64,000 nucleotides of DNA from Elusimicrobiota bacterium (GTDB lineage Bacteria > Elusimicrobiota > Elusimicrobia > UBA1565), in the NCBI GenBank assembly GCA_016218495.1, contig JACRDU010000124.1, positions 6,681 through 70,680 on the forward strand, given 5' to 3'. Shown one piece after another: positions 39,361 through 48,300 of the stretch; position 1 is the first letter of the stretch, and the number at the start of each line of letters is the position of its first letter. The position numbers are program-made.

Positions 39361-42300
39361 GGAGCGGTCCACCTTTGTCGGGTCCTTGCCGGAGAACGCG
39401 CCCCCGCCGTGCGGGGCCGCGCCGCCGTAGGTGTCGACGATGATCTTGCGCCCCGTGACGCCGGTGTCGGACACCGGGCCGCCGACGACGAACTTGCCGG
39501 TGGGGTTCACGTGGATGATGGTCTTCTCGTCGAGCAGGCGCTTGCCGAGCACGGGCCGGATGATCGTGTCGATGAGCTCCTTGCGGGCCTTCTCGGTGAT
39601 CTGCTCGCCGGTCTTGTCGAGGATCTCCTCGGTGTGCTGGGTGGAGAGCACGACGGTGTCGACGCGCAGCGGGCGGCCGTCGAGGTACTCGACCGTGACC
39701 TGGCTCTTGCCGTCCGGGCCGAGGTAGGGGAGGATGCCCTTCTTGCGGACCTCGGAGAGGCGGCGGGCCAGGCGGTGGGCCAGCATGATGGGTAGGGGCA
39801 TGAGCTCCGGCGTCTCGCGGCAGGCGTAGCCGAACATCATGCCCTGGTCCCCGGCCCCGCCGGTGTCGACGCCCTGGGCGATGTCGGGGGACTGCGTCCC
39901 GATGGTGTTCATCACCGCGCAGAGCTCGTGGGAGAAGCCGAACTTGGGATGGTTGTAGCCGATCTCGTTGACGACCTTGCGCACCAGCTTGTCGACGTCC
40001 ACATAGGACTTCGTGGTGATCTCGCCGCCGACGATGACGAGGCCGCGGCTGATGAAGGTCTCGCAGGCGACGCGCGCCATGGGGTCCTGGGCGAAGATGG
40101 AGTCGAGGACGCCGTCGGAGATCTGGTCGCAGACCTTGTCCGGATGCCCCTCGGTGACCGACTCCGACGTGAAGAAGTGCCTGCCTGTGCGCTGCATGTT
40201 CGTCCTCCGAATGCCCCTGAGGGCTCCTTGGTTTCTTTACTGCCTTACGTTCAAAACGGCCGCGTCATAGGCGGTGATGTCCGACTGGACCATGCCGCCC
40301 GCACCGACGATGGCGTTCACCAGATGCGCCTTTTCTCCGACGGTGACTCCGTCGAAGAGTATACAACTTTTGAGGACGGCTCCGGCTTTGATGTGCCCTC
40401 GCGCGCCCACCACCGTGTCGGGCCCGACCACGGCCCTCGGCCCGATGACGCTCCGGGCCCCGATGACGCAGGGCGCCTTGAGCTCCGCGGTGGCGTCGAT
40501 GCGGGCGCCTTCCTCGACCCAGACCCGGGGGCGCAGCTCGCTGCCGGGGATCAGCAGCTTGACCTGGCCGTCGAGGACGGCGTGCATCGCGTTGCGGTAC
40601 TCGCTCAGCGAGCCCACGTCGCACCAGTAGCCGGTCCACTCCCATGAGTGGATGGGCTTCTTGAGCTTGAGCAGCTTGGGCCAGAGCTCGTGGCCGAAGT
40701 CGTAGAAGCCCTTAGGGATGAGCTTCAGGATCCCGGGCTCGAAGAGGTAGATGCCGGTGTTCACCTGGTTGGAGAGGAACTGGGCCCAGCTGGGCTTCTC
40801 GACGAAGCCCTTGATGCGCCCGTTCGGGGACGACAGCGTGACGCCGAAGGGGAACTTGGCGTCGATGGCCTTGGTCACCATCGTCGCCAGCGAGCGCTTG
40901 CGCTTGTGGAAGGCCCAGAGGGCCGAGAGGTCCACGTCGCTGAGGCCGTCGCCCGACATGATGAGGAACGGGCCGTCCTTGAGGAAGCGCTCGACCTTCT
41001 TGACCGCCCCCGCCGTGCCCAGCAGCTTCTTCTCGTGCGAGTAGCGCACGCGCAGGCCCCAGCGCGAGCCGTCGCCGCAGTAGCGCATGACCTGCTCTGG
41101 GTGCATGTGGACGTTCATCATGACGTCGCGCACCCCGTGACGGGCCAGGTTGTCCAGGACATGGTGGAGGACCGGCCGGTTGACGATGGGCATCATCGGC
41201 TTGGGCGTCTCGTAGGTGAGGGGACGCAGCCGGGTGCCGGCCCCGGCGGCCAGCACCATCGCCTTGAGCGGCGGCTGAGCGCTCACAGATGCGCGTTCAC
41301 CCAGCGCGCGGCCTGCTCGAGCAGGACCTGGGTGCGCTCCGGCTTGTCGGTCTCGGCGTAGGTCCGGATGAGCGGCTCGGTGCCCGAGGGGCGCATCAGG
41401 ACCCAGCTGTCGTCTTCCAGGATGACCTTGATGCCGTCGAAGTCCAGGATCTTCTTGATGCCCTGGTTCAGGATCTTCTTCGGGAGGCGCTTCTGGATCT
41501 TGGCGGTGAAGGCCGCCTTGTCGACGGCCGGGCGGTGGATGCGGAAGTCGATGCGCTTGAAGTGCGAGTCGCCGTACTTCTGCGCGACCATCTTCCAGAG
41601 CTCGGAGGGCGTCCTGCGCGTCTTCGCGCAGATCTCCAGCATCAAGAGGCCCGTGACCAGCCCGTCGCGCTCCGGCAGGCCGCCCTTCCAGGCGTAGCCG
41701 CCGGACTCCTCGCCCGCGATGACGGCCGTGCCCTTGGCGACGGCCTCGGCCACGAACTTGAAGCCCACCGGCATCTCCTCGAAGGGCAGGCCGTGGGCCG
41801 CGGCGATGCGTCCCGACAGGTAGCCCATCGACACGGACTGCACGATCTTCCCCTTCACCCCGCGGTTGGAGATCAGGTACTCGAGCACGATGGGGAACAC
41901 CTGGCAGGGGGTCAGGTAGCGGCCGCCGTCGTCGATGATCGCCACGCGGTCGCCGTCGCCGTCTATGCCGATGCCGAGCAGGGCCTTGTTGTCGAGCACG
42001 GCCTTCTTGAGCGCCGCCAGGTTCTCCTCGATGGGCTCGGGGTTCACCCCCCCGAAGAGGGGGTCGCGCCCCGCGCGTATCTCGATCAGGCGCCCCTTCG
42101 GGAGGAGGTGGGCCATCAGCCCGCCGGAGGCGCCGTGCAGGTAGTCCACCACGACGGGACGCTTGATGTCCTTGGCGAACTTGGCCGGGTTGGAGCGCGA
42201 GCGGAGGTAGTTGAGGTAATCCTCGGTGTAGGACTTCGTCTTGGCGGGCGTCCCGCCCAGGCGGGCCGGATGGGCCCGGTCGAGGAAGGACTCGACGGCC

Positions 42301-45300: not shown

Positions 45301-48300
45301 GGGCGCTGGTTCGGGCGGGGCTGGAAGGAGGTCAGGTCCTTCCCGTTCCCCGACGGCACGCAGGCCGTGCTGTTCCAGCGCCGCCGGCTGGGCGCCCCGC
45401 CCCTCGCGCCGGGGAGGGTGACGGTGGCCTATTACGAAGAGGGCCACTTCAAGGCCGAGGGCATGGTGCTGGACTTCGGGCCCTGGGACGCGGAGCGCGG
45501 CGTCTACAGGACGGTGGGCGTCAAGGCCGACACCTTGACCATCCGCGGCCTGCAGGTGGACGGGGTGGAGCTCACCCTCGAGAACCTGGCCTTCTTCAAC
45601 GCCGACGAGACCGACGCGGCCAAGTCCGACCCGCTCTCCGACCCGCGCTTCACGCGCCTCGACGCCGTGACCCTGCGCCGCGCCTCGGTGCGGGCCGAGT
45701 CGCTGGCGGCCTTCATCCAGGATAGGGTCAAGGGCCTCGAGGGCGTCGCCGTGACCATCGACGGCGGGGCCGTGAGCGCGTCGGCCAAGTTCAAGGGCAA
45801 GACGGTGAAGGCCGCCCTGTCGGCGGCGCTCCTGCCGGGCGGCAAGGGCATCGAGGCGAAGCCGCTCTCCGCGTCGGCCCTGGGGTTCCCGCTGCCGGCG
45901 GCGCTCCTCGGTACGGCGACGCTTCCTTTCGAACCCACCTCGGAGCTGCCCTTCCGCATCGCCATGCCGTCCTTGAAGCTCGAGGGCGGCTGGCTCAGAG
46001 TGGGCGGCTGAAGCGATAGGCCCAGCGGCCCAGCCAAGCGCCGGCCGACAGGAACCCCAAGAGGGTGATGAGCCTGACTCCCGCCGGCAGCCCGCCCATC
46101 GGCCCCGCGTCCCGGAGCAGGTTGGCCAGCGGGTGCAGGTCCCAGCGCCATAGCTCGGCCTCGGCGCCCACCGTCGAGAACGAGCCGGGGTACGGGAAGA
46201 ACGCCCCGACGGCGTGGACCAAGGCCGAGTAGGCGAAGAGGACGGCGAAGGCCGCGCGTCCTCTGTCGCCCAGGCGCAGCTGGGACATCGCCACCGCCCA
46301 CACCGCCGCGGCCATGGCGAAGTAGCGCGGGCCGAAGGTCTGGCCGCCCGTCCAGGTGGTGCGAAAGCACAGGAAGGCCAGCAGCATAGGCCCCGCCGTG
46401 AGCAGGTAGGGCGCCCAGCGCCGTTCCTTGTCGCGCCAGGCGTCGGCCAGCGCCCAGACCCCGAAGAGGAGGACCGGGGAGAACCACAGCAGGCCGCGCG
46501 TCGGGCTGACGAGGAGGCCGGCCAGCGCGTCGGTGCGGAAGACCCCGAACATCCCGCCCTGGGCGCCCATGTAGGGGGGCTTGGGCGCGCCCGTGTACCA
46601 GAGCCAGTAGGCCAGGTTGAAGAGCAGCGGCCCCGCCGCGCCGGCCAGGAAGGCCGGCAGACGCCGCGTGCGGTGCAGAAGGTAGTAGAGCCCCGCGGCG
46701 ACGATGAAGAAGACCGAGTCCTCGCGGCTGGCCATCGCCAGCGCGAAGCCCAGTCCCGCCAGGGCCGCGTCCTTGTCGTCCTCGCCCAAGAGCCCGAGCA
46801 TCCCCAGCGCGGCGCCGAGCTGGGCCGGCCCGTGCGAGTGCAGGGCCTGGCTCGACACGCTCCAGGACCAGGTGCCCAGGCCGTAGGCCAAGGCGCACAG
46901 CGCCGCCCAGCGTCCGTCGGCGCGCCGCCGGCAGGCCGCGTAGACGGCGGCGGCGCTGAGGGCCGTGATGAGGGCGCCGGAGACTTTGGAGAGGTTGTGC
47001 AGGCCGAAGTCGTTGGGGGGCCCGCCGAAGAGGGAGGGCAGGAGGTAGGCCGGCAGGGCCAGCACGGCCGGAAAGACGGAGAAGATGGAGAGCAGGGGGT
47101 CCGACCGGTAGATGCGGAAGTCGGCCAAGGTCTCCAGCTCGAACTTCGCGCGGAACGGTTCCAGGCTCAGCGTGCTGTGCTGCAGGATGCCGAAGGGGAT
47201 GAGCGAGTTCGGGATGTCGTCGCCGCCGTGCCAGCGCATCGTGGCCAGGTAGGCGGTGAGGCAGAGCAGGGCCACGGGGAGGTGGGCGGGCTCGTCGAGC
47301 AGGCGCCGTCCCCGGGCGGCGCGGGAGCGCCAGGCCGTGCAGAGGGCGACGAAGCTGAGGATGAGGGCGGCGGTCCAGGGCGGGGGGATGCCGCGCAGGC
47401 GGCTGGCGTTGCACAGCGAGACGAGGAACAGGGTCCCGGCCAGGCCCAGGGGGAGGGAGGTCATCGCTTGACCGCGTAGAGCTCGACCGAGCCGCCGCAG
47501 CGCAGGCCCGCTTCGAGGACGGTGAGGAGTACGGCGAGCGGCGCCAGGGGAACGGCCAGGGCCAGGGTCAGCAGGGCCTGGGCGGGGTTCTTGCGCAGCG
47601 GAGCCGAGCGGGCGGACTTCGATTTGAGCCAGTCGTAGAGGTAGTTGAAGCGCGGCGTGGCCATGTTGAGCAGGCTCTGCAGCCAGCCGTAGGGGTTCTG
47701 CTCGAAGCTGAAGTGGTCCTCCTGCACCACCACGAAGGAGTTCCTCTCGATGGCGGCGCGCAGGGACGAGGCCCCGAAGTGCCAGTAGTGGCGCGGCACG
47801 TCCAGATGGAACCAGTCCGGCCCGCTGACCTCGGCCTGCAGGCTCTCGGAGTTGGGCACGGCCACCACCAGCAGGCCGCCGGGCTTGAGCAGGGCGTGGG
47901 CCTTGGCCAGCATGGCGAAGGGGTCGCGGAAGTGCTCCAGGGTATGCCAGAAGATGACGGCGCTGAAGGAACCCGCCTGGTAGGGGGCGGTTTCGAGCGG
48001 CCCGACATGGACGGGGATGTGGAGCTTGTGCGCGGCGTGCCAGGCGGAGTGCTCGGAGAGCTCCACTCCGTACGGGAGGAAGCCCAGCTCGCGCAGGGTC
48101 TTGAGCAGGTAGCCGCGCCCGCAGCCGACGTCGAGCACGGGCCCGGGCTGCGCGCGGCGGCGGATGACGTCGGCGCGGCGCCGGCGGAAGGCGCGGATGA
48201 GGCGCTCGAGCTGCGGGTGGAAGCGCGCGTTCCCTGAGCCGTAGTAGGCCTGCGGGTACCAGGCGCCGATCTCGGAGTCGGGCAGGGCCGGGTCGGTCCA

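Follow-up and report, generated by a model that had tools for sequence, protein, structure and literature searches.

GT-C glycosyltransferases that depend on polyprenyl-phosphate sugars, such as ArnT and the GtrC-type enzymes, are common in diderm bacteria, and only the version that uses mannose is rare. In mycobacteria, LmeA supports MptA, a GT-C enzyme that depends on polyprenol-phosphate-mannose (PMC7643837). Here, we have analysed a stretch of 64,000 nucleotides from an uncultured member of the Elusimicrobiota, hereafter called the window, in which an initial annotation had recognized a GDP-mannose supply module feeding GT-C transferases for periplasmic, polyprenol-phosphate-mannose-dependent mannosylation, a system it considered rarely described in diderms. 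Our analysis supports the gene families, the GT-C folds and the conserved linkage of the genes, but not the mannose specificity, and the rarity applies to the mannose version and not to polyprenol-phosphate-sugar GT-Cs in general. The block is conserved across the phylum and pairs the predicted synthesis of activated mannose and glucose with membrane transferases that probably decorate a lipid-linked glycan of the envelope.

Sugar-activation genes

Coding frames were picked by third-position GC and the called genes were annotated with Pfam and NCBIfam, which recovered all five genes of the region 40237-47464 at the positions of the initial annotation. Its family-level identification of a phosphomannomutase and two nucleotidyltransferases placed head-to-head with a large GT-C enzyme was correct, while every match of the three supply enzymes to the NCBIfam equivalogs falls under the curated cut-off. 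The phosphohexomutase (41283..42698, minus strand; 471 amino acids) is an alpha-D-phosphohexomutase of the PMM/PGM type, in which all four PGM_PMM domains are present and the catalytic motifs TASHNP, DGDGDR, GEESGG, and RPSGTEP are all intact. Its closest solved relative is the Thermus protein 1tuo, described as a “putative phosphomannomutase” (235 bits).

The stop codon of the mutase overlaps by 4 bp with the start of the gene for NTase-A (40237..41286, minus strand; 349 amino acids), a CugP-like sugar-1-phosphate nucleotidyltransferase with an NTP_transferase domain and a Hexapep domain that forms a left-handed beta-helix. The closest solved relative of NTase-A is 8x7s, a UTP--glucose-1-phosphate uridylyltransferase (228 bits), whereas its scores against GDP-mannose pyrophosphorylases are at most 141 bits, and its motif LAAGAGTRLRPLT agrees with the AAGxGTR of 8x7s. 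Judging from its sequence, NTase-A is probably a UDP-glucose pyrophosphorylase. NTase-B (42707..43765, minus strand; 352 amino acids) is a GMPPB/Rv3264c-like nucleotidyltransferase that contains an NTP_transferase domain, a GMPPB_C/LbH domain and the motif GGLGTRLRPLT. Its best-scoring model is NF052502 (man1P_GTase_Rv), with 307 bits and thus under the cut-off of 440, and its closest solved relatives are human GMPPB (171 bits) and VTC1 (161 bits), all of which is consistent with a probable GDP-mannose pyrophosphorylase. The initial annotation took both proteins to be mannose-1-phosphate guanylyltransferase-like, a reading that it had set against specificity for glucose-1-phosphate; the likeness of NTase-A is to an enzyme of the latter kind, and the call is retained as probable for NTase-B but is not supported for NTase-A.

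No phosphomannose isomerase was found in the window, nor is there a counterpart to the small mannose-6-phosphate-isomerase cupin (PF01050) that is located between NTase-B and the mutase in 49 relatives. The position of the cupin inside the operon of these relatives supports the GDP-mannose branch, and a supply of GDP-mannose is plausible in view of the cupin and the match of NTase-B, albeit with the isomerase missing from the window. The final conserved gene of the minus-strand block encodes the S-adenosylmethionine synthetase MetK (38992..40197, minus strand; TIGR01034, 565.6 bits, above cut-off), which may be a mere housekeeping passenger.

NTase-B and the large GT-C enzyme, GTC1, are arranged head-to-head with 47 bp between their start codons (43766..43812), a region that is AT-rich compared to the 70% GC of the genome. 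An exact TATAAT lies in it, 12 bases before the ATG of GTC1. A scan with the sigma-70 consensus identified no complete promoter.

GT-C glycosyltransferases and the glycan operon

GTC1 (43813..46011, plus strand; 732 amino acids) matches PMT_2 (32.7 bits) and PMT (28.5 bits), both above the Pfam cut-offs. It consists of about 11 transmembrane helices (residues 33-377), an alpha/beta domain (residues ~400-530) and a beta-rich C-terminal domain (residues ~534-732). The top Foldseek match of its AF2 model (pLDDT 88.7) is ArnT (5ezm, E 2.5e-6), followed by ALG12/ALG9, AftA, AftD, and oligosaccharyltransferases, whereas true PMT structures are weak matches (E 0.02-0.4). The residues W67-D68-Q69 in loop 1 are invariant, with D68 as the invariant acidic residue, and the loop thus has a DQ where the PMT motif has DE. 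The C-terminal region of the GTC1 in the window has no match to LmeA in Pfam, but PF11209 (LmeA) was identified in 14 of 36 members of the family, where it spans residues ~559-737, and the domain can be considered LmeA-like because the protein is homologous to these members over its full length.

GTC2 (45995..47464, minus strand; 489 amino acids; identical to HY928_13415 at NCBI, 100%) is convergent with GTC1, with an overlap of 17 bp, and has no large soluble domain. Its matches to PMT_2 (20.6 bits) and to the LA_3751/LA_3752 putative glycosyltransferase family (48.8 bits) are both below cut-off. The AF2 model (pLDDT 94.0) is most similar to AglB (E 6.6e-4), and then to Emb, AftA, PglB, ALG12, and PimE, and an invariant aspartate, D82, is located in loop 1, within HGGDDIPNS. 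The confident Foldseek matches of both proteins, with a probability of about 0.9 or more, are GT-C glycosyltransferases without exception, and the predicted structures thus bear out the earlier assignment of both polytopic proteins to the GT-C fold.

GTC2 closes a long operon of glycan genes on the minus strand, in which a 4-bp overlap joins its start to the stop of MT1 (47461..48408, minus strand), a class I SAM-dependent methyltransferase (Methyltransf_23, 92.9 bits) with a Cys4 zinc-ribbon-like motif at the N-terminus and a hydrophobic segment at the C-terminus. The adjacent part of the operon (48405..53376, minus strand) is tightly packed, so that three of the four junctions as far as MT1 overlap by 4-8 bp, and encodes the GT4 glycosyltransferase GT4a (48405-49529), a DegT aminotransferase (49531-50655), a polyprenyl glycosylphosphotransferase (50652-52076; TIGR03025 EPS_sugtrans, 343.8 bits, above cut-off), and an M24 aminopeptidase (52069-53376), all identified from Pfam and NCBIfam. 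The order of M24, glycosylphosphotransferase, DegT, and GT4 is repeated in related loci (L002-L005, L009, L011-L013, and L015). A second GT4 glycosyltransferase identified with Pfam, GT4b, is located at 53436..54500 on the minus strand.

Conservation across the Elusimicrobiota

Nearly all relatives of GTC1 with an organism name belong to the Elusimicrobiota. Among the 74 related loci with enough upstream sequence, NTase-B is the adjacent divergent neighbour of GTC1 in 61, although the median identity of the GTC1 proteins is only 37.6%, and the gap between the two genes is 1-142 bp in the four loci with called genes. This arrangement is not due to chance, and the proposed tie between the supply operon and the large GT-C enzyme is upheld as a deeply conserved divergent synteny. 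The mutase follows in 55 of 64 loci and NTase-A is present in 36 of 54, while MT1 is found within 3 kb downstream of GTC1 in 37 of 63. In about 13 of the 74 loci, GTC1 has no adjacent NTase-B, and in L002, which is the closest (65% identity) of the relatives that have upstream sequence, cytochrome genes are located upstream of GTC1 instead. MetK is located upstream of GTC1 in 34 of the 48 loci whose flanking sequence extends over 7 kb or more, and LptF and LptG are encoded near the locus in the window and in most related loci, although on opposite sides in different lineages. Since MetK and LptFG are also syntenic, a part of the conservation could reflect inherited gene order and not functional coupling.

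Two loci, L070 and L078, contain a co-directional operon that encodes WzyC, GT2_231, a 414-amino-acid protein, GT4b, a GTC1 paralogue adjoining GT4b, the phosphoglycosyltransferase, DegT, and GT4a. The most widely conserved core of the related loci contains no polyprenyl-phosphate GT2.

Glycosyltransferases elsewhere in the window

The Ppm-like GT2 genes reported elsewhere in the window are present as two genes for soluble proteins of about 230 residues. GT2_230 (17813-18505, minus strand) is encoded in an operon (17813..20750, minus strand) with a UDP-glucuronate decarboxylase (18505-19440; UXS1 match, E 2e-108) and a UDP-glucose 6-dehydrogenase (19437-20750), and by their family matches these genes represent a putative UDP-xylose branch downstream of UDP-glucose. 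GT2_231 (55801..56496, minus strand; Glycos_transf_2) resembles soluble polyprenyl-phosphate glycosyltransferases and no transmembrane segment was found in it. Its family scores are all under cut-off (AglJ 112 bits, ArnC 72, PpgS 61), and among solved structures it is equally similar to ArnC (72 bits) and the Dol-P-Man synthase of P. furiosus (69 bits), followed by GtrB (36 bits). In relatives it pairs with GTC3 (59136..60788, minus strand; 550 amino acids), a PMT_2 GT-C (34.6 bits) with a PPSFDE motif in loop 1, and the orthologues of the two are adjacent in L004 and L005. The window also encodes the 414-amino-acid polytopic protein (60722-61966, minus strand), which has no family match, and an O-antigen ligase/polymerase-like protein (61963-63216, minus strand; Wzy_C, 77 bits), but no flippase (Wzx or GtrA) was recognisable among the Pfam matches.

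Proposed function and alternative explanations

We favour, with somewhat better than even confidence, that these genes form the centre of a locus for an envelope glycan that is conserved throughout the Elusimicrobiota and combines sugar supply with GT4 and periplasmic GT-C steps. Besides the synteny and the folds, the proximity of LptF and LptG and the likeness of GT2_231 to ArnC and Dol-P-Man synthase speak for this reading. In the cytoplasm, the mutase would convert hexose-6-phosphate to hexose-1-phosphate, which the two paralogous nucleotidyltransferases would activate, most likely to GDP-mannose by NTase-B and to UDP-glucose by NTase-A. The nucleotide sugars may supply the GT4 enzymes that act in the cytoplasm on a glycan linked to polyprenyl diphosphate, as well as an ArnC/DPM1-like GT2 that would form polyprenyl-phosphate-monosaccharide donors. 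GTC1, expressed divergently from the 47-bp gap, has a large C-terminal domain that is LmeA-like, and as such lipid-binding, in homologues and is predicted to be periplasmic; the compact GTC2 and the putatively membrane-anchored MT1 end the operon of the initiating glycosylphosphotransferase, the sugar aminotransferase and the GT4s. The LmeA-like relatives and the paralogues in glycan operons point to a periplasmic action of GTC1 on a lipid-anchored envelope glycan. We infer that the GT-Cs transfer mannose or glucose at the periplasmic face to an acceptor with a lipid anchor, for example LPS or a lipoglycan.

The route of the initial annotation, from GDP-mannose through a Ppm1-like GT2 to protein O-mannosylation or a lipomannan-like lipoglycan made by GTC1 and GTC2 in the periplasm, seems rather unlikely. 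It would agree with the GMPPB/Rv3264c likeness of NTase-B, the cupin in the relatives, the PMT and PMT_2 matches of GTC1, the LmeA-like domain in homologues of GTC1 in light of the mycobacterial role of LmeA for MptA (PMC7643837), the DPM1/ArnC-like GT2 in the window, and a fold that matches the Dol-P-Man-dependent ALG12/ALG9 nearly as well as ArnT. However, NTase-A resembles UDP-glucose pyrophosphorylases, the isomerase is missing, GT2_230 belongs to the UDP-xylose operon, and GT2_231 is no nearer to Dol-P-Man synthase than to ArnC and is partnered with GTC3 instead of GTC1 in relatives, while both the weak matches to PMT structures and the DQ of loop 1 set GTC1 apart from PMTs. Moreover, the GTC1 paralogues in an operon with phosphoglycosyltransferase, DegT, GT4, and Wzy_C suggest that the nucleotide sugars may feed cytoplasmic GT4s and not a polyprenol-phosphate-mannose route. 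Taken further, the sugars might serve only GT4a and GT4b in building an oligosaccharide on polyprenyl diphosphate, started by the glycosylphosphotransferase, with GTC1 taking the finished lipid-linked oligosaccharide en bloc in an oligosaccharyltransferase, ligase or polymerase-type step that needs no polyprenol-phosphate-hexose. The position of the GTC1 paralogues between GT4b and the phosphoglycosyltransferase, the significant matches of GTC1 and GTC2 to AglB, STT3, and PglB, and a conserved core without GT2 are in line with this scheme, which we nevertheless regard as improbable, as the best matches of GTC1, ArnT and then the ALG mannosyltransferases, use monosaccharide-phosphate-lipid donors, a Wzy_C protein is already available for a ligase or polymerase step, and GT2_231 shares the same operons.

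That the supply operon has no functional link to GTC1, merely provides the cell with UDP-glucose and GDP-mannose for general housekeeping, and is adjacent to GTC1 through inherited gene order along with MetK, LptF/G, and TraF_2, is the least probable explanation. The housekeeping genes metK and lptF/G are indeed kept in the same neighbourhood, and the loci in which GTC1 lacks the adjacent NTase-B, including L002, would also fit, but the exact divergent pairing persists at 35-40% GTC1 identity despite rearranged surroundings, such as the switch of LptF/G from one side to the other.

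Organization of the locus

Coding frames were selected by their third-position GC content, the GC content of the window being approximately 70%. All five genes that the initial annotation had placed between positions 40237 and 47464 were present as described, as judged from the Pfam and NCBIfam matches. Three of them form a sugar-nucleotide supply operon on the minus strand, which encodes a nucleotidyltransferase with an NTP_transferase domain and a left-handed β-helix (NTase-A, 40237-41286), a four-domain phosphohexomutase (41283-42698), and a second nucleotidyltransferase with NTP_transferase and GMPPB_C domains (NTase-B, 42707-43765). 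The fourth gene, on the plus strand, encodes a polytopic protein of 732 amino acids (GTC1, 43813-46011) with matches to PMT_2 and PMT, both above the Pfam cut-offs. The fifth, on the minus strand, encodes a polytopic protein of 489 amino acids (GTC2, 45995-47464) with matches to PMT_2 and the LA_3751/LA_3752 family that are all sub-threshold. GTC2 is 100% identical to HY928_13415, an NCBI protein of a MAG labelled “Elusimicrobia bacterium”.

The genes for GTC1 and GTC2 are convergent and overlap by 17 bp. The genes for NTase-B and GTC1 are divergent, and their starts are separated by 47 bp (43766-43812), a gap with a strikingly high AT content by the standards of this genome. An exact TATAAT in the gap ends 12 bases before the start codon of GTC1, which would mean that either the leader is very short or the true start lies further downstream. 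The N-terminal 27-30 residues of GTC1 are not conserved and are disordered in the model. A scan for the sigma-70 consensus from 38.8 to 48.6 kb of the window identified no site.

GT-C folds of the two polytopic proteins

Sequence searches against the PDB gave no match for GTC1, searched as a single sequence, or for GTC2, searched as a profile, and both proteins were therefore modelled with AF2 from family alignments; only structure prediction followed by Foldseek placed them in a class. The model of GTC1 (pLDDT 88.7, pTM 0.87) contains about 11 transmembrane helices, followed by an alpha/beta domain and a beta-rich domain. Its top 35 Foldseek matches are all GT-C enzymes, with ArnT in the first place (E 2.5e-6, TM 0.56 normalised to ArnT) and ALG12, ALG9, AftA, AftD, and oligosaccharyltransferases among the further matches. 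The confident matches to the model of GTC2 (pLDDT 94.0) are also all GT-C enzymes, among them AglB, Emb proteins, AftA, PglB, ALG12, and PimE (best E 6.6e-4, probability ~1). Both families contain an invariant aspartate in loop 1. W67-D68-Q69, located directly after TM1 in GTC1, is invariant in 36 family members, and D82, after TM1 in GTC2, is invariant in its family. Judged from the predicted folds and these aspartates, both proteins are GT-C transferases rather than members of non-glycosyltransferase families, in agreement with the initial annotation. As a GT-C enzyme, GTC1 would use a donor linked to polyprenyl phosphate or diphosphate. A comparison of the GTC2 and GTC1 families with hhalign revealed no relationship (probability 0.3%), and close paralogy of the two proteins is therefore not claimed.

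Predicted products of the supply operon

The two nucleotidyltransferases, both previously taken to be similar to mannose-1-phosphate guanylyltransferases, are paralogs that share 36% identity. This assignment was retained as the probable one for NTase-B. Its best NCBIfam score, 307.4 bits, is to the model for the mannose-1-phosphate guanylyltransferase Rv3264c (NF052502) and falls below the cut-off of 440 bits, while among solved structures it matches human GMPPB best, at 171 bits, followed by Arabidopsis VTC1 at 161 bits. The NTP_transferase and GMPPB_C domains, with a short left-handed β-helix (LbH) domain, correspond to the GMPPB/Rv3264c type, and the loop GGLGTRLRPLT lines up with the corresponding loops in GMPPB and VTC1 (GGxGTRLxPLT type).

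NTase-A, on the other hand, is closer to a solved UDP-glucose pyrophosphorylase than to the GDP-mannose pyrophosphorylases. It scores 228.1 bits against 8x7s, a protein of 401 amino acids named “UTP--glucose-1-phosphate uridylyltransferase”, as compared to at most 141.2 bits against VTC1, GMPPB, and the 7whr entry. The name, architecture, and sequence of 8x7s suggest that it is a cyanobacterial UDP-glucose pyrophosphorylase of the CugP type; a literature search for the PDB code 8X7S found no paper. The CugP-type class is documented (PMC8227023, PMC7133116), CugP itself being the cyanobacterial UDP-glucose pyrophosphorylase of the non-GalU kind (Maeda et al. 2014, as cited in PMC8227023 and PMC7133116). 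NTase-A shares with 8x7s the NTP_transferase and LbH architecture and the AAGxGTR loop, but it is shorter (349 amino acids), and its activity is a predicted one. For one of the two genes, the likeness to 8x7s thus points to the glucose-1-phosphate specificity that the initial annotation had named as evidence against its own proposal. UDP-glucose pyrophosphorylases of the LbH class (CugP type) are often mis-annotated as mannose-1-phosphate guanylyltransferases, and NTase-A illustrates that such labels can conceal them.

The mutase contains PGM_PMM domains I-IV with intact TASHNP, DGDGDR, GEESGG, and RPSGTEP loops (serine, metal, sugar, and phosphate, respectively). Its best NCBIfam match is archaeal GlmM (265 bits, as compared to a cut-off of 439), and its best solved relative is a “putative phosphomannomutase” from Thermus, matches that do not separate a preference for mannose, glucose, or glucosamine. 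Most likely, the operon combines one GDP-mannose enzyme (NTase-B) and one UDP-glucose enzyme (NTase-A), both supplied by a dual-use mutase, and its products would be GDP-mannose and UDP-glucose.

We also considered the GDP-mannose contacts of VTC1 (PMC9168903) as indicators of nucleotide and sugar specificity. Comparable residues are conserved in NTase-A and NTase-B, and this approach was dropped because they are also present in the UDP-glucose enzyme 8x7s. A regulatory and catalytic pair similar to GMPPA and GMPPB was set aside as well, as both proteins retain the catalytic loop and the EKP motifs and many lineages lack NTase-A.

Conservation across the Elusimicrobiota

To estimate how widely the arrangement is conserved, the proteins of the window were compared with 85 related loci by tblastn; duplicate loci were excluded from the neighbor counts, and each gene was scored among the loci with enough flanking sequence. 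NTase-B was adjacent and divergent to GTC1 in 61 of 74 loci, and the mutase (55/64), NTase-A (36/54), and MetK (34/48) were located near GTC1 in most of the loci examined for these genes. A Methyltransf_23 gene, here called MT1, was found within 3 kb downstream of GTC1 in 37 of 63 loci. The synteny is phylum-wide. The 80 retrieved genome loci were titled Elusimicrobia, Elusimicrobiota, or unclassified “bacterium”, and the organism-named relatives of GTC1 were almost all Elusimicrobiota MAG proteins. The median identity of GTC1 across the compared loci is 37.6%, and a gene block whose divergent arrangement persists at about 38% protein identity is the mark of a core function of the envelope.

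In 49 loci, a cupin of about 116 amino acids (PF01050, mannose-6-phosphate isomerase) is encoded between NTase-B and the adjacent mutase, the order of transcription being NTase-B, cupin, mutase, and NTase-A. This would be the gene set for the conversion of Fru-6-P to GDP-mannose, and no other observation speaks more strongly for a mannose branch. No PF01050 cupin was identified in the whole window (tblastn, E 1e-3) or in its nearest relatives.

LptF and LptG are encoded nearby in the window and in most related loci. A TraF_2 (PF13729) protein (36034-37323, minus strand) is kept beside LptF/G in many Elusimicrobiota loci, whichever side LptF/G occupies. Directly upstream of LptF/G are two large open reading frames of 1313 and 593 amino acids (24725-30258, minus strand) with a strong coding signal and no Pfam match, and one related locus (L003) contains a similar, very large unannotated gene before LptF.

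A possible LmeA-like domain at the C-terminal end of GTC1

The LmeA-like, phospholipid-binding domain PF11209 was found in 14 of 36 aligned full-length homologs of GTC1 (best E 8e-9). In three homologs (P0010, P0038, and P0084), it covers approximately residues 515-737 with scores of 26-30 bits, the gathering cut-off being 27.3 bits. The C-terminal end of GTC1 in the window gave no Pfam match when scanned alone at E-values up to 10, and the assignment for this protein therefore rests on the homologs, with which it aligns over the full length at 39-49% identity for those that contain PF11209.

In mycobacteria, LmeA is a periplasmic, phospholipid-binding protein of the TULIP type that is needed for the elongation of lipomannan and for maintaining the GT-C mannosyltransferase MptA (PMC7643837). 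A fused LmeA-like module suggests a lipid-anchored acceptor for GTC1. The C-terminal domain is predicted to lie on the periplasmic side. Such a fusion would also lend independent genetic support to the proposal from mycobacteria that LmeA-type lipid binders act directly with GT-C glycan elongases.

The wider glycan gene set

GTC2 is the last gene in a tightly packed operon on the minus strand, in which most junctions overlap by 4-8 bp. The operon encodes, in order, an M24 peptidase, a phosphoglycosyltransferase, a DegT aminotransferase, the glycosyltransferase GT4a (48405-49529), the methyltransferase MT1 (47461-48408), and GTC2. Further upstream on the same strand are genes for a second GT4 protein (GT4b, 53436-54500), an inserted AAA_14/DUF4143 protein, a soluble GT2 protein (GT2_231, 55801-56496), and a polytopic protein of 546 amino acids, followed by a second Methyltransf_23 protein, a third GT-C protein with a PMT_2 domain (GTC3, 59136-60788, 550 amino acids), a polytopic protein of 414 amino acids, and a Wzy_C protein. 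In two related loci (L070, 6689-15766, and L078, 6505-15761), a paralog of GTC1 belongs to one operon whose genes all point in the same direction, in the order Wzy_C, GT2_231, 414-aa protein, GT4b, GTC1 paralog, phosphoglycosyltransferase, DegT, and GT4a. L078 is from a complete genome (CP096137), which also holds a canonical copy of GTC1 (L068). Two independent arrangements thus connect the GTC1 family with this set of glycan-assembly genes.

The initial annotation also referred to Ppm-like GT2 genes elsewhere in the window. Two soluble GT2 proteins of about 230 amino acids are indeed present, but neither can be assigned to mannose. Among solved structures, ArnC (72 bits) and the Dol-P-Man synthase of P. 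furiosus (69 bits) are equally close to GT2_231, whose NCBIfam scores are 112 for AglJ, 72 for ArnC, and 61 for PpgS; in the relatives, it adjoins the ortholog of GTC3. The other protein, GT2_230 (17813-18505, minus strand), is encoded in an operon with UDP-glucose 6-dehydrogenase (Ugd) and UDP-glucuronate decarboxylase (17813-20750, minus strand), the latter with an E-value of 2e-108 to human UXS1. By homology, this operon is a UDP-xylose branch from UDP-glucose that ends in an ArnC/PgfS-like GT2, a hint that the glycan contains xylose or that there may be a polyprenyl-phosphate-xylose donor.

A GT-C gene of about 490-550 codons lies directly beside a Methyltransf_23 gene twice in the window (45995-48408 and 58153-60788, both on the minus strand), and the pair recurs in distant relatives (L086, 12148-14661, and L087, 20369-22148). 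In MT1, a Cys4 motif resembling a zinc ribbon is located at the N-terminal end, and the C-terminal tail is hydrophobic. Along with the conserved nearby MetK, the pairing suggests that the glycan is methylated.

Comparison with known systems

The initial annotation had proposed periplasmic mannosylation dependent on polyprenol-phosphate-mannose. The general logic, a cytoplasmic supply module beside GT-C enzymes that probably act in the periplasm, was borne out, but mannosylation from such a donor is one of several readings and a rather doubtful one. In favor of a GT39 protein mannosyltransferase (PMT) of the eukaryotic or actinobacterial kind, PMT and PMT_2 match residues 121-260 of GTC1 above the cut-offs, and several homologs are named “glycosyltransferase family 39 protein” by NCBI. 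However, PF02366 is matched only at profile positions 83-235, loop 1 contains D68-Q69 rather than the DE motif of the PMTs, MIR domains are lacking, and solved PMTs are weak structural matches (E 0.02-0.4). The ArnC/ArnT system of lipid A modification, consisting of a GT2 and a GT83 GT-C protein, provides the best structural match to GTC1 and, in ArnC, the nearest solved relative of GT2_231, and the locus is close to LptF/G. The predicted logic of the locus is also that of this system and of the analogous GtrB/GtrC glucosylation of the O-antigen, in which a periplasmic GT-C enzyme draws on a polyprenyl-phosphate monosaccharide and modifies an LPS-linked acceptor. Yet, GTC1 is only 11% identical to ArnT, has no NCBIfam match to ArnT and a much larger, two-domain C-terminal extension, and no genes for ArnA, ArnD, ArnE, or ArnF were identified in the window, where the adjoining supply genes are predicted to make hexose nucleotides rather than Ara4N. 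The polymannan cluster of E. coli O8/O9a contains manC-manB genes for GDP-mannose, the GT4 mannosyltransferases WbdA-C, and the methyltransferase WbdD, which acts on the glycan. The window resembles it in that genes predicted to supply GDP-mannose occur together with those for GT4 transferases and a SAM methyltransferase, but O8/O9a uses an ABC transporter and no GT-C protein, neither Wzm nor Wzt was seen here, and its ManC is of the cupin-fused type while NTase-B is of the LbH type.

The mycobacterial LM/LAM pathway consists of ManB (PMM), the GDP-mannose pyrophosphorylase Rv3264c, Ppm1, the GT-C protein MptA, and the periplasmic LmeA. The locus has in common with it a GMPPB-type (LbH) pyrophosphorylase-like enzyme, a phosphohexomutase, a soluble GT2 that resembles DPM1 about as much as ArnC, and a GT-C protein for which the homologs suggest an LmeA-type lipid-binding module (PF11209; PMC7643837). 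The locus differs in that the LmeA-like module would form the C-terminal end of the GT-C protein, unlike the separate mycobacterial LmeA, the host belongs to the LPS-type diderms and carries LptF/G, NTase-B is under the cut-off of the Rv3264c model (307 vs 440 bits), GTC1 has no specific match to MptA-type enzymes, and the use of mannose is putative.

Taken together, we infer that the GT-C enzymes act in the periplasm on a lipid-anchored envelope glycan with polyprenyl-phosphate-linked donors. A more specific and decidedly speculative scenario, which we consider improbable as a whole, is that LPS-bearing diderm Elusimicrobiota make a mannose- or glucose-containing lipoglycan with a GT-C protein that is permanently fused to an LmeA/TULIP-type lipid-transfer domain and hard-wired throughout the phylum to its own supply operon for GDP-mannose and UDP-glucose. 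If so, GTC1 would combine in one polypeptide the counterparts of the mycobacterial pair MptA and LmeA, and the elongation of a periplasmic glycan would be coupled to the handling or transfer of its lipid anchor. A literature search found no paper linking the Elusimicrobiota with such transferases. The parts themselves are ordinary. To our knowledge, neither their conserved divergent coupling nor the GT-C/LmeA-like fusion has been described. The Elusimicrobiota are nearly all uncultured, with an essentially undescribed envelope chemistry, for which the gene block offers concrete candidate enzymes: a pair of nucleotidyltransferases, a mutase, and three GT-C proteins.

Other genes in the window

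The M24 Xaa-Pro aminopeptidase gene (52069-53376, minus strand) shares 8 bp with the start of the phosphoglycosyltransferase gene, and its position is kept in seven related loci (L002-L005, L011, L013, and L015), making it an odd but stable member of the glycan operon. The AAA_14/DUF4143 ATPase gene (54497-55732, minus strand), located between GT4b and GT2_231, looks like a recent insertion, since L005 and L002, the closest relatives, lack it there. The polytopic proteins of 546 (56516-58156) and 414 (60722-61966) amino acids, both encoded on the minus strand, contain about 8-9 hydrophobic segments and match neither Pfam nor NCBIfam families. In the 414-aa protein, which is kept in the L067, L070, and L078 operons, the first transmembrane segment is followed by the motif YYYDERDY, which recalls loop 1 of GT-C proteins. 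Finally, a PBP1C-type penicillin-binding protein (Transgly, Transpeptidase, and BiPBP_C domains) is encoded beside a bacterial alpha-2-macroglobulin of 1507 amino acids (9822-16489, minus strand), an ordinary instance of the usual pbpC-yfhM pairing.
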